A stretch of 64,000 nt of DNA, taken from NCBI RefSeq assembly GCF_024700885.2, contig NZ_CP117016.1. The stretch is one strand, 5' to 3'. Under the pieces are notes generated by a model. It was not told where the DNA came from, ran no database searches, and saw only the letters and a program-made list of their open reading frames with translations. Within the stretch, counting starts at the first letter, position 1, and every line of letters begins with the position of its first letter. Below are positions 19,556 to 56,619 of this stretch, piece after piece. The translations under genes and the position numbers were made by a program. This DNA comes from Escherichia coli (lineage in GTDB: Bacteria > Pseudomonadota > Gammaproteobacteria > Enterobacterales > Enterobacteriaceae).

Positions 19556-22096
19556 ATGAAAAATAGAAATCGTATGATCGTGAACTGTGTTACTGCTTCC
19601 CTGATGTATTATTGGAGCTTACCTGCACTGGCTGAGCAGTCGTCAAGTGAGATAAAGATTGTTCGCGATGAATACGGCATGCCGCATATTTATGCCAATG
19701 ATACATGGCACCTATTTTATGGCTATGGCTATGTAGTAGCACAAGATCGCCTTTTTCAGATGGAAATGGCACGTCGCAGTACTCAAGGGACTGTCGCGGA
19801 AGTGCTTGGCAAAGATTTTGTGAAATTTGATAAAGATATCCGTCGTAACTACTGGCCGGATGCTATCCGGGCGCAAATTGCTGCCCTTTCCCCAGAGGAT
19901 ATGTCCATTCTGCAAGGCTACGCTGATGGAATGAATGCCTGGATTGATAAGGTAAATACCAATCCAGAGACGCTCTTACCAAAACAGTTTAATACATTTG
20001 GCTTTACTCCTAAGCGCTGGGAACCGTTTGATGTCGCGATGATATTTGTGGGCACCATGGCAAACCGCTTCTCTGATAGCACTAGCGAAATTGATAATCT
20101 GGCACTGCTAACGGCTTTAAAAGATAAATATGGTGTATCACAAGGCATGGCGGTATTTAATCAGTTGAAATGGCTGGTAAACCCATCAGCGCCAACCACT
20201 ATTGCCGTACAAGAGAGTAGCTACCCACTTAAATTTAATCAGCAAAACTCGCAAACAGCAGCTCTGTTGCCACGCTACGATTTACCTGCACCAATGCTTG
20301 ACCGACCAGCAAAAGGGGCGGATGGCGCACTGCTGGCGTTAACAGCAGGGAAGAACCGGGAAACTATTGCTGCACAATTTGCACAGGGTGGTGCCAATGG
20401 TCTGGCGGGGTATCCAACGACCAGCAATATGTGGGTGATCGGCAAAAGCAAAGCCCAGGATGCGAAAGCAATCATGGTAAATGGTCCGCAGTTTGGCTGG
20501 TATGCGCCTGCGTATACTTATGGTATTGGTCTGCACGGTGCTGGTTATGATGTCACTGGCAATACACCATTTGCCTATCCTGGGCTGGTTTTTGGTCATA
20601 ATGGTGTGATTTCCTGGGGATCAACGGCAGGTTTCGGCGATGATGTCGATATTTTTGCTGAACGGCTGTCGGCAGAGAAACCAGGCTACTACTTGCATAA
20701 TGGTAAGTGGGTGAAAATGTTAAGCCGTGAGGAAACCATTACGGTGAAAAATGGTCAGGCAGAGACCTTTACTGTCTGGCGTACGGTGCATGGCAACATT
20801 CTCCAAACTGACCAGACGACACAAACGGCTTACGCTAAATCCCGCGCATGGGATGGTAAAGAGGTGGCGTCTTTGCTGGCCTGGACTCATCAGATGAAGG
20901 CCAAAAATTGGCAGGAGTGGACACAGCAGGCAGCGAAACAAGCACTGACCATCAACTGGTACTATGCTGATGTAAACGGCAATATTGGTTATGTTCATAC
21001 TGGTGCTTATCCAGATCGTCAATCAGGCCATGATCCGCGATTACCCGTTCCTGGTACGGGAAAATGGGACTGGAAAGGGCTATTGCCTTTTGAAATGAAC
21101 CCTAAGGTGTATAACCCCCTGTCGGGATATATTGCTAACTGGAACAATTCTCCCCAAAAAGATTATCCCGCTTCGGATCTGTTTGCCTTTTTGTGGGGGG
21201 GGGCAGATCGCGTTACGGAGATCGACCGACTGCTTGAGCAAAAGCCACGCTTAACTGCTGATCAGGCATGGGATGTTATTCGCCAAACCAGTCGTCAGGA
21301 TCTTAACCTGAGGCTTTTTTTACCTACTCTGCAAGCAGCGACATCTGGTTTGACACAGAGCGATCCGCGCCGTCAGTTGGTGGATACATTAACACGTTGG
21401 GATGGCATCAATTTGCTTAATGATGATGGTAAAACATGGCAGCAGCCAGGCTCTGCCATCCTGAACGTTTGGCTGACCAGTATGTTGAAGCGTACCGTAG
21501 TGGCTGCCGTACCTATGCCATTTGATAAGTGGTACAGCGCCAGTGGCTACGAAACAACCCAGGACGGCCCAACTGGTTCGCTGAATATAAGTGTTGGAGC
21601 AAAAATTTTGTATGAGGCGGTGCAGGGAGACAAATCACCAATCCCACAGGCGGTTGATCTGTTTGCTGGGAAACCACAGCAGGAGGTTGTGTTGGCTGCG
21701 CTGGAAGATACCTGGGAGACTCTTTCCAAACGCTATGGCAATAATGTGAGTAACTGGAAAACACCTGCAATGGCCTTAACGTTCCGGGCAAATAATTTCT
21801 TTGGTGTACCGCAGGCCGCAGCGGAAGAAACGCGTCATCAGGCGGAGTATCAAAACCGTGGAACAGAAAACGATATGATTGTTTTCTCACCAACGACAAG
21901 CGATCGTCCGGTGCTTGCCTGGGATGTGGTCGCACCCGGTCAGAGTGGGTTTATTGCTCCCGATGGAACAGTTGATAAGCACTATGAAGATCAGCTGAAA
22001 ATGTACGAAAATTTTGGTCGTAAGTCGCTCTGGTTAACGAAGCAGGATGTGGAGGCGCATAAGGAGTCGCAGGAAGTGTTGCACGTTCAGAGATAA
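19556..22096 (+). CDS. pac: Penicillin G acylase precursor (846 aa)
   Basis: Signal peptide ([26 protein letters not shown]), length and sequence match my memory of E. coli penicillin G amidase. Confidence 0.9.
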
Positions 22097-25936: not shown

Positions 25937-26449
25937 TTAAATCGCAGCTTCCATTTCCAGCATCACCGGATGGAAACGGCGTTTAAAGTAGATAAGTCCG
26001 TGACCTTCTGCACTGAGGATGATGTTTTTAATCTCCACCAGATACACCAGATGTGTGCCAATTGCCTGCACATCGCGGATCTCACCTTCAAGACTGGCTA
26101 GCGAACCTTTTAGCACCGGCTGCGCCAGCGGACCTTTTTGCCAGCATGAGAGGCTAAAACGCTCTTCCATCGCCATGCCTGTCATGCCTGCGAAGTGGCG
26201 TGCCATCAGTTCCTGCTCATGGTTGAGGACGTTGACGCACAACTTGCCGTTGCCCTGAAAAACCGGGTTCATCGCACTGTTGGCGTTAATGCACACCATC
26301 AGCGACGGTGGTGTATCCGTGACCGAGCAGACGGCCGTTGCCGTAATCCCGCATTGTCCGGCGTCGCCCTCGGTGGTGATAATATTTACCGCTGCCGACA
26401 GGCTGGCCATCGCGTCACGAAAGCGCAGGCGTTGTTCATCTAATTGCAT
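25937..26449 (-). CDS. hpaC: 4-hydroxyphenylacetate 3-monooxygenase, flavin reductase component
   Basis: 170-aa protein downstream of hpaB; matches my recollection of HpaC. Confidence 0.85.
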   Translation of the reverse strand: MQLDEQRLRFRDAMASLSAAVNIITTEGDAGQCGITATAVCSVTDTPPSLMVCINANSAMNPVFQGNGKLCVNVLNHEQELMARHFAGMTGMAMEERFSLSCWQKGPLAQPVLKGSLASLEGEIRDVQAIGTHLVYLVEIKNIILSAEGHGLIYFKRRFHPVMLEMEAAI

Positions 26450-26466
26450 CTTAACCTCCTGCTGCG

Positions 26467-28029
26467 TTATTTCAGCAGCTTATCCAGCATGTTGATATCG
26501 TCGTTGTTGTGCAGGTGCGGCACAGTCCAGCCGTTCTGGTCGTATTCCGACAGGCAGCGATCAACCATCGCCATCATCTTGTCCATATTGCCGGAGCTTT
26601 GTGCCTGGCGCAGACACTGCAGGCGAATCTCATCCTGGCTACCGGAGTAGTTGATTTCATACAGTTCGTGACGACCACCAAATTCGCTGCCAATAGCATC
26701 CCACATCAGTTTGAGGATCTTGATGCGCTGGACGTGATCCATACCATTCGAACCGCGCACATACTTCGCCAGATACTGGTCGATCTGCGGATTGTTCAGG
26801 TCACGGGCACTGGAAGGAAGATAGATCAGGCCACTGGTAACGTTGCGTTCGATAATGTTTTTGATCTTCGCGTAGGCCATTGGTGCCAGTACGCGATAGG
26901 TTTGCAGTGCGGCATGATCCGGTAAATAAGCCCCGTTGACCCACGGCGTCGCTTCTGAGCACATCGAGTCACTCAATGCCCAGAAGGTGTTGCGCCACGC
27001 CACCACTTCACCGAGATCGGCCTGCACGCCCCGGAACTCCAGGGTGCCGGTACATTCAAGTGATTTTTTCAGCAGTGCCGTGATGAAATCGAGTTTCACT
27101 GCCAGGCGCACACAGGCTTGCAGCGGATACATACGGGCGAAACCGCCTTCCATCGTCCAGCGACGGCAGCGATCGAAATCGCGGTAGATCAACACGTTTT
27201 CCCACGGGATCAGTACGTTATCCATCACCAGAATCGCATCGTTCTCATCGAAGCGGCTGGAGAGCGGGTAGTCGTACGGCGAGCCGGTAGCACCCGCGAC
27301 CATCTCATAAGAGGCGCGGGAGATTAATTTCACGCCATCGGCATCCATTGGCGCAACGAACATCAGTGCGAAGTCCGGGTTTTCGCCCATCACTTGTGCC
27401 GAGCCGAAGCCAATCATGTTGTAGTGAGTCAGCGCCGAGTTGGTGGCAACCACTTTCGCACCGCTGACGATAATCCCGGCGTCAGTCTCTTTTTCCAGCT
27501 TGATGTAAACGTCTTTTACTTTATCGGTCGGCAAATGACGATCGATCGGTGGGTTAACAATCGCGTGGTTAAAGTAGAGGCCAGTTTCCTGAATACGGGT
27601 GTACCAGTTACGGGCGTTCTGCTCGAACTGACCGTAAAAGCCCGGATTCGCGCCCAGTGCGCAACCGAAAGCGGCTTTGTAGTCTGGGGTGCGGCCCATC
27701 CAGCCATAGCTCAGGCGTGACCACTCAGCGATGGCGTCGCGTTGCTGGCGCAGGTCGTCGGCACTTTTCGCCACGCGGAAGAATTTATGGGTATAGCCGC
27801 CGCTGCCGGTGTCGGTGTTCCAACACAGAGAGTCCTGCATCTCCGGTTTGTGCAGCGCGTCGTACAGTTGGGCAACAGACGCTGCCGCATTACGAAATGC
27901 CGGATGAGTGGTGACGTCTTTCACTCGCTCGCCATAGATATAGATCTCGCGACCATCCTGCAGGCTTTTCAGATACTCTTCCCCGGTGAACGGACGTTGG
28001 GTACTGGCGCGGAAATCTTCTGGTTTCAT
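26467..28029 (-). CDS. hpaB: 4-hydroxyphenylacetate 3-monooxygenase, oxygenase component
   Basis: 520 aa; recognised as HpaB. Confidence 0.9.
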   Translation of the reverse strand: MKPEDFRASTQRPFTGEEYLKSLQDGREIYIYGERVKDVTTHPAFRNAAASVAQLYDALHKPEMQDSLCWNTDTGSGGYTHKFFRVAKSADDLRQQRDAIAEWSRLSYGWMGRTPDYKAAFGCALGANPGFYGQFEQNARNWYTRIQETGLYFNHAIVNPPIDRHLPTDKVKDVYIKLEKETDAGIIVSGAKVVATNSALTHYNMIGFGSAQVMGENPDFALMFVAPMDADGVKLISRASYEMVAGATGSPYDYPLSSRFDENDAILVMDNVLIPWENVLIYRDFDRCRRWTMEGGFARMYPLQACVRLAVKLDFITALLKKSLECTGTLEFRGVQADLGEVVAWRNTFWALSDSMCSEATPWVNGAYLPDHAALQTYRVLAPMAYAKIKNIIERNVTSGLIYLPSSARDLNNPQIDQYLAKYVRGSNGMDHVQRIKILKLMWDAIGSEFGGRHELYEINYSGSQDEIRLQCLRQAQSSGNMDKMMAMVDRCLSEYDQNGWTVPHLHNNDDINMLDKLLK

Positions 28030-28279
28030 GTCGACCTCTACAGTATTAATCGGAATACGATTGTTAATTTTGTGTTTTGTTTTTGTTATTCAATTGAAGC
28101 TTGCAGGGGCGATTACGGGAAGACACTTTTGGGACAATGGCTGGTACTTTTCAGGTCGGGTACGGTTTTGTGATCGAGGTCGCTTTTCGCGATTTTTAAC
28201 GTTACTAAATCCCCTTGCTCCAGGCGGAGAAAGGGGAATAGCAGGTGGTGCCTGGTTTCCCGTTAAGGCTAAGGGATTT

Positions 28280-29170
28280 TCACGTCACAGGTACTTTTTT
28301 GGCACGATAAGCACTGGGCGAGCAACCGACTAAACGATTAAAAAAGCGCGCAAAATAAGCCGGATCCTTAAAACCGAGTTGCCAGGCAATATTGTTCACG
28401 GCGTTATCAGAAAACAGCAGCAGCCGCTTGGCTTCTCGTAGCTGCCTGTCGAAAATCAACCGTTTTGGCGGACGGTTGGCAAAGCGGCGGCAGATGTCCG
28501 TGAGGCGTGATTCGGTGATATGCAGTTCGTTAGCGTAATCCGGTACTGTCCAGTGCTGATGAAAATGGCTTTCAATCAGCATATTAAAACGCTGGAACAG
28601 TTTTAATTCTCCGCGCATTCCGCTGGCGGCATGGTCGTCGAGTTTTGCGTTACGCAGCAGTAGGGTGAACACTGCCTGTGCCAGTAACGTCAGGGTGTGT
28701 TCCCGTCCAGGCAGTTGTTCCACCGATTCCCGCTCTATCAGTTGCCAATAGTGTTCCAGCGCCGCCAGTTCGTCGGGTTTATCTGCCAGTGACAGGCAAA
28801 TCCCCGGCAGGCCGAAGGTTTCCCGAGTGCCCGGATAAAGAACTTCCAGCAGGGGCCAGATCAGATCTTCCCGTACCGTCAACACATGACCGTCGGCGTC
28901 AGACTCCGTAATAAACGCATGAGGTACTGACGGCGGCGTCAGGACAAACAGGGGCGCTTCCACCGAGTAGCGATGATCGTCAAGCTGTAGCTCAATCTGT
29001 CCGCTATTGAGGAAATGCATCTGAAAGTACTGTTCGTGGCGATGTGGCAGCATATGGCGGCCAAAAAATGCCGCCATGCGGGCGAATGACTGATAATGCA
29101 CATCGTCCGTGCCCAGGCTTTCATCGTACTCTTTGCTGATATCAATATTGGCAATCTGACGGTCACACAT
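28280..29170 (-). CDS. hpaA: AraC-family activator of hpaBC
   Basis: C-terminal AraC-type HTH; cluster position. Confidence 0.85.
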   Translation of the reverse strand: MCDRQIANIDISKEYDESLGTDDVHYQSFARMAAFFGRHMLPHRHEQYFQMHFLNSGQIELQLDDHRYSVEAPLFVLTPPSVPHAFITESDADGHVLTVREDLIWPLLEVLYPGTRETFGLPGICLSLADKPDELAALEHYWQLIERESVEQLPGREHTLTLLAQAVFTLLLRNAKLDDHAASGMRGELKLFQRFNMLIESHFHQHWTVPDYANELHITESRLTDICRRFANRPPKRLIFDRQLREAKRLLLFSDNAVNNIAWQLGFKDPAYFARFFNRLVGCSPSAYRAKKVPVT

Positions 29171-29179
29171 CGTCGTTCC

Positions 29180-30556
29180 TTACGGGGTCGCTCGCGGACG
29201 GGAGGACTGCATTGGAATCGCCCAGATAATCCCCGCACCAATCACCAGCAGCGCGGCAACAAACCACAATCCACTGTTAAAGCTGCCGGTCAGATCTTTC
29301 AACCAGCCGATCATAAACGGACTTAACGCTGAACCAATGTTGCCTGTGGCGTTGATCACCGCAATACCGATCGCTCTTGCCCGCAGGCTGATGGACTGAT
29401 CCGGTGTTGTCCAGAAAATCGCCATTGCGCTGAATGATCCGGTCGAAGCCATAATGATCCCCAGCATCTGGAGCATGTTGTGATCAGTTGCCGAAGCCAG
29501 TAACCAACCAGCGGCAGCGAACAAATAAGGAAGGGCGGTGTGATGCCTTCGTTCCTGGCGGCGATCTGAGTGACGGCTCCAGTAGATCATCCCGAGAATG
29601 GTACAAATCTGCGGTACGGCGGCCAGCAGGCCGATGGTGATATTACTGCTGCCCTGATTAAAGCTTTGCAGGATCTGCGGTGTCCAGATGCTGATCGCAC
29701 TAAGTGTGTTGGTCAGGCAGAAATACGCCAGGGTATACATCATCACCACCGGAGTGAAGATCTCCCGCCACATGCTGCGTTGTTGCATGGCATGGTGGCT
29801 GATGGCTCCCTCAGGCTGAACCAGCGTCAGACGATCGTTATCCATCATCTCTTGCAGGCATTTTTTGTCTTCTTTCGTCAGCCACTTAGCTTTGTCCGGT
29901 GAGTCATCAAGCCAGAACCACACCATGACGCCGAGTAATACCGACGGGAAGCCTTCCAGCAAAAACAGCCACTGCCAGCCTTTTAATGCCATTACGCCAT
30001 CCAGCGACAAAATGTAGCCGGAAACGATAGAGCCCAGCGCTGTCGTTACCGGCATTGCCACCATAAACAAGGCGTTGGCACGGGCGCGGAAATAGGCCGG
30101 AAACCAGAAGGTTAAATACAGCAGAATGCCAGGCAGAAAGCCGGCTTCGGTAATGCCAACCAGTATACGCAGTACGTACAAGCTGGTGGGGCCAGTGGCA
30201 AACATGGTAGCAGTAGAGGCGATGCCCCAAAGCACCATGATGGTGGCGATCCAGCGCCGTGCACCGACAATACTCAGCATAATGTTGCTGGGAATGCCGA
30301 AGATGACATAAGCGGCGTAGAACAGGGTGGTGGCGAGGCCAAACATGGTGGCGCTCAGACCGAGGTCGCGTCCCATCGTGAGTCCGGCAAAGCCGATGTT
30401 GATGCGATCAAGGAACGAGAAGATAAACAGCACGAACAGAAAGACGATCAGGCGGCGAAACAGCTTCTTAATAACCGCCTGTTGTCCGGTAGTCAGCGCT
30501 TTATGCTGATTCGCCGGATCGATACTCTCCGGTATGGCAGGTGAGGTGTCGCTCAT
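29180..30556 (-). CDS. hpaX: 4-hydroxyphenylacetate MFS transporter
   Basis: 458-aa MFS protein; cluster position. Confidence 0.85.
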   Translation of the reverse strand: MSDTSPAIPESIDPANQHKALTTGQQAVIKKLFRRLIVFLFVLFIFSFLDRINIGFAGLTMGRDLGLSATMFGLATTLFYAAYVIFGIPSNIMLSIVGARRWIATIMVLWGIASTATMFATGPTSLYVLRILVGITEAGFLPGILLYLTFWFPAYFRARANALFMVAMPVTTALGSIVSGYILSLDGVMALKGWQWLFLLEGFPSVLLGVMVWFWLDDSPDKAKWLTKEDKKCLQEMMDNDRLTLVQPEGAISHHAMQQRSMWREIFTPVVMMYTLAYFCLTNTLSAISIWTPQILQSFNQGSSNITIGLLAAVPQICTILGMIYWSRHSDRRQERRHHTALPYLFAAAGWLLASATDHNMLQMLGIIMASTGSFSAMAIFWTTPDQSISLRARAIGIAVINATGNIGSALSPFMIGWLKDLTGSFNSGLWFVAALLVIGAGIIWAIPMQSSRPRATP

Positions 30557-30600
30557 TTTTCTTCCTCTAATGGGATTTTTGTAGGGTACGACAAGGTTTA

Positions 30601-30670
30601 TGGCGGATGCGGCGTAAACGCCTTATCCGGCTACAGTTTGGTACTGCTGTAAGCCGGATAAGCGCATTCA
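30601..30670. repeat. REP/BIME-like palindromic elements between hpaX and hpaI
   Basis: ggcggatgcggcgtaaacgccttatccggc and gccggataagcgc motifs read directly. Confidence 0.55.
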
Positions 30671-30673
30671 GCA

Positions 30674-31462
30674 TTAATACACGCCGGGCTTAACGGTCGT
30701 GGCCTGCGCGCCAAACCGTGCTGCCAACGCTTCGGCGGCGCGGGCGAGCAGGGTGGTGTCAACGCCGACGGCGACAAACAGCGCGCCCAGTTCCAGATAG
30801 CGTTTTGCCAGTTGCTCATTGGCGATCAGGATCCCCGGCGCTTTGCCCGCTTCGCGGATCTGCACGATCGCCTGCTCAATGGCGACCTGTACTTCCGGGT
30901 GCTGTGGATTACCGGCATAACCCATATCGGCGCTCAGATCCGCCGGGCCGATAAACACGCCGTCGACCCCTTCCACGTCCAGAATCTGCGGTAAGTTCTT
31001 CATTGCCTCACGCGTTTCGATCTGCACCAGCACGCACATTTGATCGTTGGCTTTTTGCAGGTAATCAGGAATGCGATTCCAGCGCGAGGCGCGAGCCAGC
31101 GCACTGCCCACACCGCGAATACCGGCGGGGGGATAACGGGTGGCGCGTACCGCTTCACGGGCTTCGTCGGCGTTTTGTACCATCGGCACCAGTAAGGTTT
31201 GTGTGCCGACGTCCAGCAGTTGTTTGATTTGCACCGGATCGTTCCACGACGGACGTACTACCGGCTGGCTGGGGTAGGGCGCAATCGCCTGTAGCTGGGT
31301 GAGCACAGTTTGCACGTTATTCGGCGCGTGCTCACCGTCGATCAATAACCAGTCGAATCCTGCTCCGGCCAGTAACTCTGCGCTGTAGCTGCTACTTAGC
31401 CCCAGCCATAATCCGATCTGCGGGCGGCCTGCTTTCAGCGCCGCTTTAAAACTGTTTTCCAT
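30674..31462 (-). CDS. hpaI: 2,4-dihydroxyhept-2-ene-1,7-dioate aldolase
   Basis: ORF extends to 31603; start placed at [20 protein letters not shown] to match the expected size. Confidence 0.85.
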
Positions 31463-31472
31463 CGTTCTCTCC

Positions 31473-32276
31473 TTAAACAAAGCGGCAGCTAATGGAGCCC
31501 ATGTTGCCGTAATCGACGTGGAAGGTGTCGCCCTTACGCGCCGGAACCGGGCGGGTAAACGAACCGCCGAGAATGATTTGCCCGGCTTCCAGTTGTACGT
31601 CATACGGTGCGAGTTTGTTCGCCAGCCAGGCCACGCCGTTTGCCGGGTGATTCAGCACGCCAGCGGCGACGCCGGTTTCTTCAATCACGCCATTGCGATA
31701 CATCAGGGCGGAGATCCAACGTAGATCCAACTCATCGGGCTTAATGGGACGACCACCGAGGATCACCCCGGCATTGGCGGCGTTATCAGAAATGGTGTCG
31801 AACACTTTACGCGGGCGCTGGGTTTCCGGATCGATGTTGTGGCAGCGAGCGTCGATCAGCTCCAGCGCCGGGATCACATAGTCCGTGGCGTTGTAGACGT
31901 CGAACAGCGTGCAGTTTGGCCCACGCAGCGGTTTTGCCAGCACGAAAGCCAGCTCCACTTCAATGCGCGGCACGATAAAGCGATCGGTCGGGATATCGCT
32001 GCCATCGTGGAAGAACATGTCATCCAGCAGGGCACCATAATCCGGCTCGCTGATTTGCGAGCTGGCCTGCATCGCTTTCGAGGTCAGGCCGATTTTGTGG
32101 CCTTTCAGCGTACGGCCTTCGGCAATTTTCAGGCGGACCCATTCGCGCTGTACGGCGTAGGCATCTTCGATGGTGATCTCCGGGTAATCCAGCGAGATCG
32201 CGCGGATCTGTTCACGCTGTTTTTCTGCCTGATCCAGACGCTGGGCGATCAGGGTGTGGGTGTGTTTATCGAACAT
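31473..32276 (-). CDS. hpaH: 2-oxo-hept-3-ene-1,7-dioate hydratase
   Basis: ORF to 32294; start at [15 protein letters not shown]; cluster position. Confidence 0.85.
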
Positions 32277-32343
32277 GGCGATATCCTGTGGCATTGCCGG
32301 ATGCGGCTGCGCCTTATCATCCGGCCTGGAAGCTGGTGCAAAT

Positions 32344-32724
32344 TTATTTAAACAACGCGTGTACGTTGTTCTGTTTGAAATTCAACGTCGGGTGCAGCTC
32401 TGCAATCTCAAATGAAAGCGCCAGGTAACGGCTCTCCATCAGTGAGGCGAAGTGCGTTTTAATCAGATCAAACAGCATTTCGCCCACTTTCTGACGGCTT
32501 TCCAGACTGCGCCCGCTGCCGATTTTTAGCGTCATATGCACAAAGGCGTAATCGTGCTTGCCATCAGCCATTTGCCAGGTATCGATCCAGTGTGCCCGGC
32601 TACGTATTCCCCCAAGCGGAAAAATCCCCGTCGCCGCCAGTGCGGTGTTAACACTGGCAAACAGCTCAGGTAAGCGGGCTTCTTGACGAATATTTTCAGT
32701 ACATTCCACGATAAAGTGCGGCAT
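32344..32724 (-). CDS. hpaF: 5-carboxymethyl-2-hydroxymuconate isomerase
   Basis: 126 aa beginning [12 protein letters not shown]; cluster position. Confidence 0.85.
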
Positions 32725-32733
32725 GGTGGTTCC

Positions 32734-33585
32734 TTACGCGGGAAGCGGGAAAACAGCGTTAACCTGACCAGTACCGGAGCTTGGGAACAGCTCGGTAATA
32801 AACTCCACCTTGCCGTCGTATTTATCCCAGCCGAGCATCCCCAGCAGCATCACCGTGTCGTGCATATTGCCTTCGCCGTAGCAGTAGTCGGCGTACTCCG
32901 GCAGCATATTGCAGAACTCTTTGAACTGGCCTTCGCGCCACAGCTTCACCACGCGCTCGTCCATCTGGCGGTCGAACTCGCGGGTGTAGCTGTTCATCCC
33001 TTCTTCTGCACGCTGATCGTCAATAAAGCGGTGCGATAACGAACCGCTGGCAAGGACCGCCACGGTACCGTCGTACTGTTCGATCGCTTTCAGAATCGCT
33101 TCGCCCAGCTTGCGGCTGTCGGCAAAATCGTGAACCGTGCAGAAAGCCGAAATGGAGACCACTTTGAAGTGCTTGTCTTCATTCATGTAGCGCATTGGCA
33201 CCAGCGTGCCGTATTCCAGTTTCAGGCTGGGAATATTGTGCGCTTTTGCCCGCACGCCGAGTTTTAAGGCTTCATCGGCAATAAGCTGCCCCAACTCCGG
33301 GTTGCCCTCGTAGTTGTAGGTCATGTCACGAATAAAATGCGGCAGCTCGTTACTGGTGTAGACGCCTTCAAAATGGTCTGCACAGTTGATGTGATAAGCA
33401 CTGTTGACCAGCCAGTGGGTATCGAAAACGATAATGGTATCGACGCCCATTTCCCGGCAACGCTTGCTGATCTCTTTATGCCCGTCGATCGCGCCCTGGC
33501 GGCAACCGTGGTTTTTCCCTGGCAGTTCAGAGAGATACATCGACGGTACGTGCGTGATCTTGGCGGCTAACGCTAACTTACCCAT
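32734..33585 (-). CDS. hpaD: 3,4-dihydroxyphenylacetate 2,3-dioxygenase
   Basis: 283 aa; cluster position. Confidence 0.9.
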   Translation of the reverse strand: MGKLALAAKITHVPSMYLSELPGKNHGCRQGAIDGHKEISKRCREMGVDTIIVFDTHWLVNSAYHINCADHFEGVYTSNELPHFIRDMTYNYEGNPELGQLIADEALKLGVRAKAHNIPSLKLEYGTLVPMRYMNEDKHFKVVSISAFCTVHDFADSRKLGEAILKAIEQYDGTVAVLASGSLSHRFIDDQRAEEGMNSYTREFDRQMDERVVKLWREGQFKEFCNMLPEYADYCYGEGNMHDTVMLLGMLGWDKYDGKVEFITELFPSSGTGQVNAVFPLPA

Positions 33586-33586
33586 A

Positions 33587-35053
33587 TCAGACTCCCCATT
33601 TCGGAATTGGATGGTCGCCCATGGAAATGCAGACGTTCTTCATTTCCGCGAACACTTCGAAGCTGTACTCACCGCCTTCACGCCCGGTGCCGGAGGCTTT
33701 TACGCCGCCAAACGGCTGGCGCAGGTCGCGCACGTTCTGGGTGTTGACGAACACCATGCCTGCTTCAATGCCACGCGCCAGGCGTAACACTTTGCTGACA
33801 TCCTGCGTCCAGATGTACGATGCCAGGCCGTACTCCACGTCGTTTGCCAGGCGTAAGCCTTCGGCTTCGTCTTTAAACGGCAGCAGGCAGGCGACCGGCC
33901 CGAAAATCTCTTCCTGGGCGACGCGCATACGGTTATCTACGTCTGCCAGCACGGTTGGGCGCAGGAAGTTGCCGCCTTTCAGATGTGCAGGCAGGTCAGA
34001 CGGTTTATCCGGGCCGCCCGCCAGCAGGGTTGCGCCTTCTTCAATGCCGAGACGGATATAGCCAGAGACTTTTTCCCAGTGCTGCTGGCTGATAAGCGCC
34101 CCAACCTGGGTATTCGGATCGTTCGGATCGCCCACGCGCAGACGGTTGGCGCGTTCGGCAAAGCGTTTAACGAATTCCGGGTAGATGCTTTGCTGAATAA
34201 AGATGCGCGAACCGGCGGTGCAGCGCTCGCCGTTGATCGAGAAGATGGTGAACAGGGCAGCGTCCAGCGCGCGTTCAATATCGGCATCTTCAAAAATCAG
34301 CACCGGCGATTTACCGCCCAGTTCCATGGAGTATTTTTTCAGCCCGGCGTTTTTCATGATGTTGCGCCCGGTGGCCGTACCGCCGGTGAACGACACGGCA
34401 CGTACGTCATGATGACGAACCAGCGCATCGCCTGCGGTTGCGCCGTAGCCCTGTACCACGTTCAGCACGCCCGCCGGAATACCGGCTTCCAGCGCCAGCT
34501 CACCCAGGCGGTCAGCGGTCAGCGGGGAGAGTTCCGACATTTTCAACACCGCGGTATTGCCCAGCGCCAGACACGGCGCGACCTTCCATGTGGCGGTCAT
34601 AAACGGCACGTTCCACGGCGATACCAGCGCACAAACGCCTACCGGTTGCACCAGCGTGTAGTTGAGCATCTTGTCGTCAACCGGATAGGTCTTGCCGTTC
34701 ATCTGCTGGCAGACTTCCGCGAAAAATTCAAAGTTGTGAGAAGCGCGTGGGATCAACACATTTTTGGTCTGATGGATTGGCAGGCCCGTGTCAGCGGTTT
34801 CCATCGCGGCGATCTCAGGCACGTTCTGGTCGATCAGATCGCCCAGACGGCGCATCAGGCGCGCACGCTCTTTCATCGGCAGATTGGCCCATTTCGGGAA
34901 CGCCTCTTTCGCTGCCGCTACCGCCTGATTGATCTCCGCTTCACCGCCAGAGGCCACATCCGCCAGCACTTCACCCGTTGCCGGATTGGTGGTCTGGAAG
35001 TAGTCGTTACCTGCAACATTTTTGCCGTTGATCCAATGATTTACTTTTTTCAT
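33587..35053 (-). CDS. hpaE: 5-carboxymethyl-2-hydroxymuconate semialdehyde dehydrogenase
   Basis: 488-aa aldehyde dehydrogenase (ELGGKSP, catalytic-Cys motif region); cluster position. Confidence 0.9.
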   Translation of the reverse strand: MKKVNHWINGKNVAGNDYFQTTNPATGEVLADVASGGEAEINQAVAAAKEAFPKWANLPMKERARLMRRLGDLIDQNVPEIAAMETADTGLPIHQTKNVLIPRASHNFEFFAEVCQQMNGKTYPVDDKMLNYTLVQPVGVCALVSPWNVPFMTATWKVAPCLALGNTAVLKMSELSPLTADRLGELALEAGIPAGVLNVVQGYGATAGDALVRHHDVRAVSFTGGTATGRNIMKNAGLKKYSMELGGKSPVLIFEDADIERALDAALFTIFSINGERCTAGSRIFIQQSIYPEFVKRFAERANRLRVGDPNDPNTQVGALISQQHWEKVSGYIRLGIEEGATLLAGGPDKPSDLPAHLKGGNFLRPTVLADVDNRMRVAQEEIFGPVACLLPFKDEAEGLRLANDVEYGLASYIWTQDVSKVLRLARGIEAGMVFVNTQNVRDLRQPFGGVKASGTGREGGEYSFEVFAEMKNVCISMGDHPIPKWGV

Positions 35054-36339
35054 TTCGCTGTTTCCTCACTCACAATTCGGTTCACCAGGCGGCCCACGCC
35101 TTCTACTTCCACTACTACTTCATCGCCAGGCACCACGTCAGATAAGCCTTTTGGTGTGCCGGTGGCGATCATGTCGCCCGGATTCAGGGTCATAAATTCG
35201 CTTAAGTAGGCGATCAGGAAGGGCACGCTGAAGATCAGATCGGCGGTGGTGCCTTTCTGGCGTAACTCGCCGTTGACGAAGGTGCGAAGGGTCAGATTAT
35301 GCGGGTCCGGGATCGCCTCTTTCGGCACGATGGTTGAAAGCATCGGCGTCAGTCCGTCGCGGCTTTTTACCCGCAGGTTAGGGCGGTAGTAGTTTTCCAG
35401 ATAGTCGCGAATGGCGTAGTCGTTACACACGGTGTAGCCCGCGACATAATCCATAGCATCGGCTTCGCTGACGTTACGCGCCTGCTTGCCAATCACCACC
35501 ACCAGCTCCGCTTCGTAGTGCATATACTCAATATTGTTCGGGCGCACGGAGGTCTGGTTATCGCCAGTGAGGGTATTCGGCGCTTTCAGGAACACCAGCG
35601 GTTCTTCCGGTGGCTTAAATTCCAGTTCGCTGGCGTGGTCGGCGTAGTTCAGGCCGAGGGCAAACAGCGTGCCGTGCGGGTGTGGCTGCGTTGGGAAGCT
35701 CTTGCGCGTGGTCACTTCACGTTCGTCCACTACCGGATTTTCCAGTGGCGGGAAACCTTCAGCGAGAACACGAACGCGATCGCCTGGCTGTATTTCCACG
35801 CGCGCCTGTGGCGTGCCGAGCAGAATGGCATCGCCTGGATTCAGCGTGGCAAATTCGCTCAGAGCGCTCAGCAACTGCGCGGCATTACGTTGTAAATCGG
35901 CGGTGTTCCAGTGATCGGCAGGACGTCCGTTGATCTCGGTATAGATGGTCAGATTATCGACATTGCTGAGAGCCACGGTTTCGCCAATGGGGCAGAATCC
36001 ATCACGACATTTTGCTTTGATTGCCGGGCGGTAAAAGCTCTCTTCCGGCAGGCTGACGTCGTTAGCCAGCGCATATCCGGCGATGTACTCTGCTGCATCT
36101 TCTTCACGTACTTTCGTCGCCGTTTTTCCCACAATCAGCGCAACAGTCGCACCGCTCAGTACCTTTTCACCCTGTGGAAAGGGAATCGGTTCACCGCAAC
36201 CAATCACCGTATTGCGCGGTTTAATAAACCAGACCGCAGTTTTAGGCGGGGCTTTGTAGGGGGATTGCTGGAACGCTTCCTGCCATGCATCAAGTTGGCT
36301 GCGATGGTTCAACGCTACGGCGAAGATAGTGCCTTTCAT
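35050..36339 (-). CDS. hpaG: Bifunctional 5-oxopent-3-ene-1,2,5-tricarboxylate decarboxylase / 2-hydroxyhepta-2,4-diene-1,7-dioate isomerase (duplicated FAH-fold)
   Basis: Internally duplicated approx 430-aa protein; ORF 35050-36345, start likely MKGTIFAV. Confidence 0.85.
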   Translation of the reverse strand: MKGTIFAVALNHRSQLDAWQEAFQQSPYKAPPKTAVWFIKPRNTVIGCGEPIPFPQGEKVLSGATVALIVGKTATKVREEDAAEYIAGYALANDVSLPEESFYRPAIKAKCRDGFCPIGETVALSNVDNLTIYTEINGRPADHWNTADLQRNAAQLLSALSEFATLNPGDAILLGTPQARVEIQPGDRVRVLAEGFPPLENPVVDEREVTTRKSFPTQPHPHGTLFALGLNYADHASELEFKPPEEPLVFLKAPNTLTGDNQTSVRPNNIEYMHYEAELVVVIGKQARNVSEADAMDYVAGYTVCNDYAIRDYLENYYRPNLRVKSRDGLTPMLSTIVPKEAIPDPHNLTLRTFVNGELRQKGTTADLIFSVPFLIAYLSEFMTLNPGDMIATGTPKGLSDVVPGDEVVVEVEGVGRLVNRIVSEETAK

Positions 36340-36345
36340 TACCAC

Positions 36346-36610
36346 TCCTCGGATTCGATCATCTTAATCATTAATATGTTAATGATTACTTTTATTCCCG
36401 ATTGCGTAGTTTGGCAAAAGTAAGTGATGTAAATGTGATCTAATTAACAAACTATTTACATTTAAAGATAATAAAATATTAAATATCAGTAAGTTAACAA
36501 AACATGCTCAATTTTGATAAAATGAAGAATTGCAGGGGCAGCGCAGTCCCGGTAACGTGATGATTAACTGTTTCTATATTAATGATTTTGAATTTTTCAG
36601 GGGGAAGATA
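36346..36610. promoter_or_regulatory. Divergent hpaG / hpaR promoter-operator region
   Basis: AT-rich intergenic region between divergent hpaG operon and hpaR; function from known hpa cluster organisation; no site mapped here. Confidence 0.5.
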
Positions 36611-37057
36611 ATGCACGACTCACTAACCATTGCGTTGCTCCAGGCGCGAGAAGCGGCGATGAGTTATTTTCGCCCAATCGTTAAACGGCATAATTTGACA
36701 GAGCAACAGTGGCGCATCGTGCGTATTCTGGCGGAAAGCCCATCAATGGATTTTCACGATCTGGCGTATCGCGCCTGCATTTTGCGCCCAAGCCTGACCG
36801 GGATCCTCACGCGGATGGAACGCGACGGTTTAGTGTTGCGATTAAAGCCGATCAATGATCAGCGGAAGCTCTATATCTCGCTGACCAAAGAGGGGCAGGC
36901 CCTGTATAACCGCGCTCAGACACAGATTGAAGAAGCCTATCGGCAGATTGAAGCTCAGTTTACTGCCGAGAAAATGCAACAGTTAACCCATCTGTTAGAG
37001 GAATTTATTGCTCTGGGTAATTCCCGACAAGAAGACATTCCGGGCGATAATGAATAA
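36611..37057 (+). CDS. hpaR: MarR-family repressor of the hpa meta-cleavage operon
   Basis: 148-aa MarR-type protein; start at MHDSLTIALLQ, preceded by a ggggaag RBS-like motif. Confidence 0.85.
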   Translation: MHDSLTIALLQAREAAMSYFRPIVKRHNLTEQQWRIVRILAESPSMDFHDLAYRACILRPSLTGILTRMERDGLVLRLKPINDQRKLYISLTKEGQALYNRAQTQIEEAYRQIEAQFTAEKMQQLTHLLEEFIALGNSRQEDIPGDNE

Positions 37058-51330: not shown

Positions 51331-51567
51331 ATGTTGCAACGTACGCTGGGCAGTGGCTGGGGAGTGTTGCTGCCGGGATTGCTGATTGCAGGGCTGATGT
51401 ATGCGGATTTATCGCCGGATCAGTGGCGGATTGTCATTCTGATGGGATTAATATTGACGCCGGTGATGCTGTATCACAAACAGTTGCGGCATTACGTTTT
51501 GCTGCCATCGTGCCTGGCGCTTATTGCTGGCATCATGCTGATGATAATGAATTTGAATCAGGGATGA
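51331..51567 (+). CDS. yjjZ: Small membrane protein YjjZ (78 aa)
   Basis: Start at MLQRTLGSGW inside the longer annotated ORF; hydrophobic; synteny. Confidence 0.7.
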   Translation: MLQRTLGSGWGVLLPGLLIAGLMYADLSPDQWRIVILMGLILTPVMLYHKQLRHYVLLPSCLALIAGIMLMIMNLNQG

Positions 51568-51605
51568 AAAATCAGGGAAGAAACAAGAAAGGAAGTAAAG
51601 ATAAT

Positions 51606-51692
51606 TGGTGCGAGGGGGGGGACTTGAACCCCCACGTCCGTAAGGACACTAACACCTGAAGCTAGCGCGTCTACCAATTCCGCCACCTTCGC
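51606..51692 (-). tRNA. leuV: tRNA-Leu (CAG)
   Basis: 87-nt reverse complement of the tRNA-Leu(CAG) sequence as I recall it; copy-to-name assignment tentative. Confidence 0.85.
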
Positions 51693-51726
51693 ACAGTCAT
51701 CTTACTTTTTTTGATATCGCCTCGTT

Positions 51727-51813
51727 TGGTGCGAGGGGGGGGACTTGAACCCCCACGTCCGTAAGAACACTAACACCTGAAGCTAGCGCGTCTACCAATT
51801 CCGCCACCTTCGC
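51727..51813 (-). tRNA. leuP: tRNA-Leu (CAG), variant copy
   Basis: Differs from the flanking copies by one base (gtaagaacac vs gtaaggacac). Confidence 0.85.
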
Positions 51814-51841
51814 CCAGTGCGAGCAATATCAACGTGGTTTT

Positions 51842-51928
51842 TGGTGCGAGGGGGGGGACTTGAACCCCCACGTCCGTAAGGACACTAACACCTGAAGCTA
51901 GCGCGTCTACCAATTCCGCCACCTTCGC
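51842..51928 (-). tRNA. leuQ: tRNA-Leu (CAG)
   Basis: Identical to the first copy; copy-to-name assignment tentative. Confidence 0.85.
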
Positions 51929-52033
51929 ATACCATCAATTCTTAAAAAGAATTGCTACCACGGAGGCGCATTCTAGTGGTTTTCAGCTTTTCGTCAATAG
52001 TTAATTATCGCCGGAGGTGTAATTGCTGGAAAA

Positions 52034-52210
<177 letters not shown>

Positions 52211-52228: not shown

Positions 52229-53260
52229 TTAACCTTTCTTCGCCTGGCGGGTCATAATGGCGCGATACACCTTGAAGCGCCCGGTTTGCGCGATCACTTC
52301 ATGGAAGCCAAATGTCTCATCCAGCACGTCCGGATAAGGCAGGAAGGCGTTCGCTACAATTCGCAGCTCGCCGCCGCTATTAAGATGACGCACCGCGCCG
52401 CGAATCAGCGTTTGCGCCGCATCGAGGCTGGTTTGCATCCCATCGTGGAACGGCGGGTTGGAGATGATCATATCAAAACGACCTTTCACCTCGGAAAAGA
52501 CGTTACTGGCAAAGACTTCACCTTCAACACCGTTGGCCGCAAGTGTTGCGCGGCTGGCTTCTACCGCTGGCGCAGAGACATCGCACAGAGTGAGACGAAT
52601 TTTCGGCGAATGGCGCGCAAAGGCAACAGAAAGCACGCCCGCGCCACAGCCGACATCCAGCACTTTACCTTTCGTGTGCGGAGTTAACGTCGAGAGCAGT
52701 AACTGGCTACCGACATCCAGACCGTCGCGGCTAAACACGCCCGGCAGCGTTTTGACCGTCAGGCCATCCACGTTATATTCGCCCCAGAATTTATCCGCAT
52801 CAAATTCCGGCTGTTTTTCCAGACGACCAAAATAGAGGCCGCAGCGACGGGCGCTGTCGACTTTATTCAACGGCGCATAATCTGCCAGCATCTGTTCGGC
52901 GCTGCGCACGCCGCTGCGGTTCTCGCCAACGACAAAAATATCCGTGCCCACCGGCAGCAGAGAAAGTAAATTCATCAACTGGAACTGGGCTTCCGGTTTA
53001 TTCTTCGGCCAGTAGTAGATCAGCGTATCGCAATCTGCGACGTCATCTGCCGTTGCGACCAGACTAAAACGGGCGTTATCCCCCATCTGGCGGCTTAACA
53101 CCTGCCAATGGTGGAATTGCTGGGTATGAGCACGGCTGGCCGCGGTATCTAAACGCGCGGGCAGGTCATCCTGTAAGTCTCCGGCAAACAGAATACGGCT
53201 TTGTTCGAAATCATCACTGTGACGCAGCAAGACTTCACTTGCCGGGGTAAATGCAGACAT
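52229..53260 (-). CDS. rsmC: 16S rRNA (guanine1207-N2)-methyltransferase
   Basis: 343 aa with SAM-binding [11 protein letters not shown] motif; synteny. Confidence 0.85.
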
Positions 53261-54973: not shown

Positions 54974-55048
54974 ATGACGTTGTCTCCTTATTTGCAAGAG
55001 GTGGCGAAGCGCCGCACTTTTGCCATTATTTCTCACCCCAATAATTAA
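54974..55048 (+). pseudogene. prfC: prfC 5' fragment (first 22 codons of peptide chain release factor 3, then NN-stop) at the prophage junction
   Basis: [22 protein letters not shown] matches the RF3 N-terminus as I recall it; the frame then reads AAT AAT TAA instead of continuing DAGKTT. Confidence 0.6.
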
Positions 55049-55202
55049 GCCAAAATTAAAGCTCTTTTACTCTTTCAAAATCCTTTCAGTTAATTGAGGT
55101 TGAGCCATATAACTCATTTAAATACATTTAGTTATGTGGCTTCTTTAATTGAAAATTCTTTCATGTAACTTTAAATCGATCTGCTTGCTTTCATCAAAAA
55201 TC

Positions 55203-55259
55203 TGTACATGTGCTTGTACATAATGTACAAAACAGCAGAGGTGTTTTTTTATTTGTACA
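55203..55259. promoter_or_regulatory. Four TGTACA hexamers within 57 bp immediately upstream of the integrase gene
   Basis: tgtaca at 55203, 55215, 55224 and 55254, read directly; candidate recombinase or regulator binding sites. Confidence 0.4.
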
Positions 55260-55268
55260 AGGTGAGTA

Positions 55269-56486
55269 ATGGCGCTGTCTGATGCGTGGTTGCGTTCAGT
55301 CGTTGGAAAGGAACGTGATAAGGTTTTGGTTAAATCCGATCGTGATGGTCTGTCTGTCAGAGTATCACCGAAAGGTCGCGTAGTGTTCCAATATCGTTAT
55401 CAATGGGCAGGGAAAGGTGAGCGCCTTGATATCGGAACTTACCCGGCAACTGGATTAAAAGAGGCCAGAGAAGAAGTTATCCGTCTCCGTGGTGAACTCG
55501 AGTCAAACCGCAATCCACGATTAGTCAGGCAGGCTGAAAAACGAAAAGCTACTGAAGCCATGACGGTAGAGTCTGTGATCCGTGCCTGGTATGAAGCATA
55601 TTGTGTAAAAAATAAAAAAGGTTCTGAACAGATACTCCGCTCGTTTGAGCTGCACCTGTTCTCTAAAATCGGGAATATCCCTCACGATGCAGCTACATTG
55701 CATGATTGGTTAGAAGTCCTGGAGCCTCTTAGCACTAAGACTCCAGCAATAGCAGACCGATTGCTAATTAACGCAAAGCAGGCCCATGTCTGGGCGTATA
55801 AGAGAAAGCTCATTGAAACTCGCCCACTGTCGGATATCACGGGTAAAGATATGGATATCCGTAAAGGTCAGAAGAAACGGTTTCTGACACATGATGAAAT
55901 TAAAATCCTTTATGCTGCGATCGATGGTTCTCGAATGGTTCCTAAATACCGGGCCTTCATTAAACTATTGCTGCATTTTGGCTGCCGTAGTTCAGAGCTA
56001 ATTACCGCCAGGGTGGACGATTTTGATTTCATTAATAAAGTATGGACTGTACCACCAGAACGACATAAGACTGGGGAGATAACAGGCGAACCGCTAAAGC
56101 GGCCCATTATTGAACCGGTTGAAGAGCTTATAAAGTACGCTATTTCTATGAACAATGGTTCCGATATGCTTTTTACTAAGGAAGGAAGCAGGGAACCCGT
56201 TGGTCGGACATCATTGCAGTCGCTGCCTTACAATTTAATGCAGTACGCATGGCGGCGTTTGGGGTATCAATTCCCTCATTGGTCTCTTCATGATTTGAGG
56301 CGAACAGCACGAACAAACTTTTCTGATCTTACTGCGCCTCATATTGCAGAAATAATGCTAGGTCATAAACTGCCAGGGGTATGGCAGGTTTATGACAAGA
56401 GCGATTATTTAGATGAACAGCGTAAAGCTTACCAGGCATGGTGGGAGAGAGTTGAATCGATAGTTACTTGTACTTGTTCAGACTAG
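55269..56486 (+). CDS. int: Tyrosine-type phage integrase (P4-like family)
   Basis: 405 aa; N-terminal arm-binding-like region and C-terminal catalytic motifs (..HDLRRTARTN.., ..LGHK..); sits at the junction with truncated prfC. Confidence 0.85.
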   Translation: MALSDAWLRSVVGKERDKVLVKSDRDGLSVRVSPKGRVVFQYRYQWAGKGERLDIGTYPATGLKEAREEVIRLRGELESNRNPRLVRQAEKRKATEAMTVESVIRAWYEAYCVKNKKGSEQILRSFELHLFSKIGNIPHDAATLHDWLEVLEPLSTKTPAIADRLLINAKQAHVWAYKRKLIETRPLSDITGKDMDIRKGQKKRFLTHDEIKILYAAIDGSRMVPKYRAFIKLLLHFGCRSSELITARVDDFDFINKVWTVPPERHKTGEITGEPLKRPIIEPVEELIKYAISMNNGSDMLFTKEGSREPVGRTSLQSLPYNLMQYAWRRLGYQFPHWSLHDLRRTARTNFSDLTAPHIAEIMLGHKLPGVWQVYDKSDYLDEQRKAYQAWWERVESIVTCTCSD

Positions 56487-56619
56487 AACTGACATTTTGC
56501 ATAGGCAGAACGCAATTATGCATATTGCGGTATAATCCCCTTCTTAAAACTGTAAGAACTGCTTGCTAATCCTTGCAGTTTTTGATTATAACATTTTTAT
56601 TTGTTTATTAGGATTTTTG

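Follow-up and report, generated by a model that had tools for sequence, protein, structure and literature searches.

Identity of a leuQ-leuP-leuV tRNA operon of Escherichia coli with that of K-12, and the distribution of the single-base difference in leuP

We analyzed a tandem array of three tRNA-Leu(CAG) genes in a 64,000-nt stretch of DNA, the whole of which is called the window here, and conclude that the array is almost certainly the chromosomal leuQ-leuP-leuV operon of Escherichia coli, with a K-12-like mechanism and with a variant in leuP that is old and inherited. The evidence lies in the gene calls, the identity with K-12, the synteny, the position of the variant in the tRNA structure, and the occurrence of the variant in E. 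coli and in other genera, all of which were observed directly.

The array and its identity with K-12

Exactly three tRNA genes were called by ARAGORN in the 64-kb window, all of them tRNA-Leu(CAG) on the minus strand with the anticodon cag at position 35, and each of the three copies also matched Rfam RF00005 with a score of 48.5 bits (gathering score 29). These calls bear out the initial annotation, which had claimed three tandem tRNA-Leu(CAG) genes at 51606-51928. By ARAGORN and Rfam, every copy forms a class II cloverleaf with acceptor, D, anticodon, and T arms and a long variable arm, and every copy has the discriminator base A73 and an encoded 3′ CCA (ending ...CTCGC-A-CCA). Within the window, the 30-nt 3′ end of the tRNA is found three times, and it was absent from all 100 shuffles, indicating that the array is not a product of chance. 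Unconstrained minimum-free-energy folds of the single genes gave no cloverleaf, as is usual for unmodified tRNA sequences, and the structure-aware calls of ARAGORN and Rfam were used instead. A run of eight G:C pairs is intact in all three genes; a mutation-accumulation study identified this run, present once per gene, as a hotspot for indels in mismatch-repair-defective cells (PMC8510543). Transcription proceeds from leuQ through leuP to leuV (Table 1), which refines the earlier description: the genes lie on the minus strand, and what had been called copy 3 is leuQ, the first gene, while copy 1 is leuV, the last.

Direct alignment with leuQ-leuP-leuV of K-12 MG1655 (b4370-b4369-b4368) gave 0 differences from 18 nt upstream of the -35 element to ~40 nt past leuV, a stretch that covers the promoter, the leader, the three genes, both spacers, the T of leuP, and the start of the 3′ flank. 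The array is flanked by yjjZ and rsmC and shares the strand of rsmC in the annotation of K-12 and in that of E. coli MLI114 (NZ_CP117013.1, 4495569-4559568, reverse complement), a record to which the whole 64-kb window is 100% identical. Its neighbors in the window are thus those of K-12, its orientation is the same, and the suggestion that this is the known leuV/leuP/leuQ arrangement holds down to the variant base of leuP. In K-12, the operon is oriented head-on to replication (PMC8510543), and the plus strand has a weakly positive GC skew, as would fit a head-on orientation of the array in the window. Given the 100% identity of the genes with those of K-12, LeuRS would be expected to charge all three tRNAs with leucine for use in translation.

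Around the array, the window and K-12 differ only outside the operon, by two upstream substitutions and one extra REP unit. The substitutions are located ~16-18 nt upstream of the -35 element (~52012 and 52014, minus strand; CCTCCGGCG against CCTCTGTCG), and they fall in an A/T-rich stretch ahead of this element, the usual site of upstream activating elements in stable-RNA promoters. The extra REP unit (33 nt) belongs to a REP/BIME repeat cluster at 52040-52200, between the stop codon of rsmC and the leuQ promoter, which contains one unit more than the K-12 cluster. Rfam calls naRNA4 within this cluster (52068-52150, plus strand, 70.3 bits), a match that is most likely due to the REP repeat family and not to one particular gene.

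The codon CUG, read by tRNA-Leu1 (CAG), is the commonest in E. coli, and leuQPV holds three of the four tRNA-Leu1 (CAG) genes. The fourth, leuT, is found at another locus, outside the window, and in E. coli its 87-nt sequence is that of leuQ and leuV. Unlike leuQPV, it sits in a mixed tRNA operon (argX-hisR-leuT-proM) that is processed by RNase E (PMC2190699). The 'leuV operon' of tRNA-Leu1 was first sequenced in 1981 (Duester, Campen and Holmes, as cited in PMC2190699).

Table 1. Features of the leuQPV array and its surroundings, in window coordinates
Feature	Position	Strand	Basis
yjjZ, convergent with the array	51331-51567	plus	
3′ trailer, unstructured, C/T-rich, G-poor; presumed region of Rho-dependent termination; overlaps the 3′ end of yjjZ	51556-51605	minus	
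leuV, tRNA-Leu(CAG), distal copy, C at position 48	51606-51692	minus	ARAGORN, Rfam; identical to K-12 leuV
leuP-leuV spacer, 34 nt	51693-51726	minus	identical to K-12; position-specific conservation across genera
leuP, tRNA-Leu(CAG), middle copy, T at position 48	51727-51813	minus	ARAGORN; identical to K-12 leuP
leuQ-leuP spacer, 28 nt, AAAACCACGTTGATATTGCTCGCACTGG	51814-51841	minus	identical to K-12; position-specific conservation across genera
leuQ, tRNA-Leu(CAG), promoter-proximal copy, C at position 48	51842-51928	minus	ARAGORN, Rfam; identical to K-12 leuQ
Region between the -10 element and the mature 5′ end of leuQ, including the 5′ leader removed by RNase P	51929-51969	minus	PMC2190699 for RNase P
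Predicted sigma-70 promoter: -35 TTGACG, 16-nt spacer, -10 TAGAAT, then G+C-rich discriminator GCGCCTCC	51970-51997	minus	consensus scan 10/12
rsmC	52229-53260	minus	
Prophage tyrosine integrase	55269-56486	plus	Pfam Phage_integrase, Arm-DNA-bind_3

Predicted transcription, processing, and termination

Judged by its sequence, the operon has a single predicted sigma-70 promoter upstream of leuQ, with a discriminator rich in G+C. Discriminators of this kind are typical of stringently controlled stable-RNA promoters. The promoter function of the leuV operon is known from the literature (Duester et al., 1981, as cited in PMC2190699). Transcription probably starts near 51962-51964. The leader contains a hairpin of 7 bp (51936-51954, minus strand; -8.3 kcal/mol in a single-sequence fold) that stops 7 nt short of the RNase P site, and its stem is retained in ten Enterobacteriaceae genera, with compensatory changes at two of its pairs (A:U/G:C and A:U/U:A; RNAalifold). 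We found no mention of this hairpin in PMC2190699.

In K-12, RNase P divides the tricistronic leuQPV transcript without any need for RNase E, termination depends on Rho, and PNPase and RNase II remove the leuV trailer (PMC2190699). Since the sequence is identical to that of K-12, the same processing and termination would be expected, and we carry promoter activity, RNase P processing, and Rho-dependent termination over from the published K-12 work on that ground. A strong sigma-70 stable-RNA promoter would thus give rise to one tricistronic minus-strand transcript, cleavage by RNase P at the 5′ end of each tRNA would release three separate precursors, and transcription would end through Rho in the unstructured, C-rich trailer, from which 3′ exonucleases would trim back to the encoded CCA. 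Several features of the window can be set beside this scheme. The bases that follow CCA are AAAACC in leuQ and AACGAG in leuP, with no U in either, as reported in PMC2190699. The first 50 nt of the trailer comprise 13 C, 3 G, and 28 T, and a similar pyrimidine-rich, G-poor trailer was seen in other genera when the alignment was inspected by eye. A scan of the minus strand found no intrinsic terminator after leuV, which agrees with the published Rho-dependent termination.

The leuP difference in E. coli and in other genera

Alignment of the three 87-nt genes yields a single variable column at tRNA position 48, where the two outer copies have C and the middle one has T. The base lies at position 51766 of the window, where the plus strand has A instead of G in gtaag[g/a]acac and the coding strand changes from C to T, just as the initial annotation had described it, with identical outer copies. 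In the ARAGORN cloverleaf, position 48 belongs to the third pair of the 4-bp variable-arm stem, a C48:G55 pair in leuQ and leuV vs. a U48·G55 wobble in leuP. The variant costs ~3 kcal/mol in the evaluated energy of the cloverleaf, and the variable arm is retained. From this preserved pairing we infer neutrality; the variant would most probably have little or no functional effect. The single-nucleotide difference of LeuP has been described (PMC12472396), and a tRNA-sequencing study set leuP apart from the identical leuQ/leuT/leuV (bioRxiv 10.1101/2020.02.21.958157). That leuP might be a pseudogene was considered and rejected, as the pair is kept as U·G and all other positions are the same as in the sister copies.

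The two forms were counted in complete E. coli genomes with 55-nt queries centered on the variable base, so that every 28-base megablast seed had to contain that base. The C form was found in 5425 of the 5426 genomes, with a median of 3 copies, and the T form in 4852, with a median of 1. With a junction query built from an O157:H7 genome, collapse of the leuQPV array to one gene was counted in 509 of the 5426 genomes (~9%), among them the sampled O157:H7 strains. The collapsed O157:H7 locus (F6321 and PV15-279) has the same leuQ leader, leuV trailer and 3′ flank, and neighbors as the full array, but contains one gene of the C form vs. the full three-gene form in the window. This single-gene locus presumably arose by recombination between the repeats, and the leuQPV array does recombine within the species. 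The statement in the initial annotation that tandem tRNA arrays are recombination hotspots is therefore supported for the species by the 509 collapsed loci, and does not apply to the window, which has the full three-gene form. In PV15-279, the one O157:H7 genome checked for it, leuT is duplicated in argX-hisR-leuT-proM; the CAG genes of O157:H7 number three, against the usual four, and none of them is of the leuP form, both leuT copies being of the C form.

Beyond E. coli, one genome per species was scanned with a 42-nt T-form pattern, which returned at least 120 loci; the sample is one of loci carrying a T, and the frequency of C-C-C arrays is not derivable from it. Among the matches listed, 31 arrays have the order C-T-C, and those with enough flanking sequence adjoin homologs of rsmC and yjjZ. 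The arrangement rsmC / C-T-C / yjjZ occurs, among the same matches, in Escherichia albertii, Salmonella enterica subsp. arizonae, Citrobacter, Klebsiella, and Raoultella, as well as in Kosakonia, Phytobacter, Pseudocitrobacter, Intestinirhabdus, and others. When ten genera were aligned, the core promoter and discriminator proved nearly invariant, both spacers were conserved, each at its own position, and the C-T-C order was conserved as well. This shared conservation of promoter, discriminator, spacers, and base order shows that the array was passed on as a unit. In Proteus, Morganella, and Xenorhabdus, the array beside rsmC comprises two genes, one of the C form and one of the T form. At the leuT position, the T form is present in Enterobacter, Citrobacter, Klebsiella, Raoultella, Morganella, Xenorhabdus, and Escherichia whittamii, vs. 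the C form of E. coli leuT. We conclude that the leuP difference is older than the divergence of the genera that share the C-T-C array.

Neighboring elements, alternative explanations, and significance

The nearest mobile element is a lambdoid-type prophage in prfC, which occupies 55038-64000; homology with K-12 stops at 55038, and the other junction lies beyond the window. Its tyrosine integrase, the only integrase in the window and ~3.3 kb from the array, is directly followed on the plus strand (56620-58752) by a gene for a 710-aa protein with a CHAT domain (Pfam CHAT), and genes annotated as yfdP/Q/R and ymfK/T/L (YmfL, a YdaS-family HTH protein, and a LexA-family protein) come after the integrase up to the end of the window. 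The 710-aa protein gives a full-length match to the BovA model of PADLOC (E 1e-241). BovA is the single-gene Borvo anti-phage system, and by its sequence the gene looks like a defense gene carried by the prophage. Elsewhere in the window are the hpa cluster for 4-hydroxyphenylacetate catabolism (~25937-37057) and a gene for penicillin G acylase (19556-22096). Both are presumably absent from K-12 and known in E. coli B, C, and W, and they are ordinary accessory content.

Because tRNA genes are common integration targets, and because a tyrosine integrase is present in the window, it might be supposed that the array serves as an attachment site, into which an island is inserted now or was inserted formerly. 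We give this idea hardly any credence. The integrase is that of the prophage, which has its junction at 55038, 65 nt into prfC, and rsmC, holD, rimI, and yjjG separate the integrase and its prophage from the array. Neither an integrase adjoining the array nor a direct repeat of the tRNA 3′ end was found within the 64-kb window; the 3′ end is limited to its three occurrences in the array, partial tRNA-Leu repeats are absent from the rest of the window, and the flanks are collinear with K-12. On these grounds (no adjoining integrase, no partial tRNA repeats, a prophage junction inside prfC), integration at the array was rejected. The array consists of three complete class II tRNAs with CCA, none of its genes is disrupted, as had been claimed, and no mobile element touches it. 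An error of sequencing or assembly at the middle base, or a mutation private to the strain, is practically inconceivable. Near-identical tandem repeats are generally prone to errors of assembly and polishing, but the same T is found in leuP of K-12 MG1655, in the 4852 E. coli genomes counted above, and in the middle gene of syntenic arrays of many other genera, and the difference has been described for LeuP (PMC12472396). The base is an old inherited difference, neither a mutation nor an error of this strain.

A weightier alternative concerns not the age of the difference but its meaning, namely that leuP is a functionally distinct isodecoder, differing for example in stability, modification, processing order, or the production of tRNA fragments, and that the U·G wobble has been selected in the middle gene instead of being a neutral escapee from gene conversion. 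Such a role would fit the recurrence of C-T-C in 31 arrays of many genera among the matches listed, which stands in spite of the recombination demonstrable within the array in E. coli, and the coexistence of C and T forms in the two-gene arrays adjacent to rsmC in Proteus, Morganella, and Xenorhabdus. We nevertheless regard it as very unlikely. The pairing of the variable arm is preserved in leuP, and the variable-arm sequence is not known from published identity studies to serve E. coli LeuRS as an identity element. The T form is absent from 574 of the 5426 E. coli genomes (~11%), including the successful O157:H7 lineage with its single C gene, and other orders (C-C-T, T-T-C, T first or last) occur in other genera. 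Moreover, leuT carries T in many genera and C in E. coli, which makes the two forms look interchangeable. The recurrence of C-T-C across genera must also be read against a sample that was conditioned on the presence of a T. The broader proposition that selection, beyond descent alone, has kept the C-U-C pattern across the Enterobacteriaceae appears to us about as improbable, or slightly more so; were it true, leuP would have a role distinct from those of leuQ, leuV, and leuT, e.g., in processing order, stability, or tRNA fragments.

The preferred reading thus remains that of a K-12-like operon with an old, inherited, and most probably neutral difference in its middle gene. The operon is unchanged from K-12, and its sequence, its processing, its mutation behavior, and the leuP difference have all been published already; the value of the present analysis as a discovery is small. 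It confirms an intact array in this strain that does not serve as an integration site, establishes the strand and the order of its genes, shows that the one-base difference is old and widely shared, and puts a number on how often the array has collapsed within E. coli.
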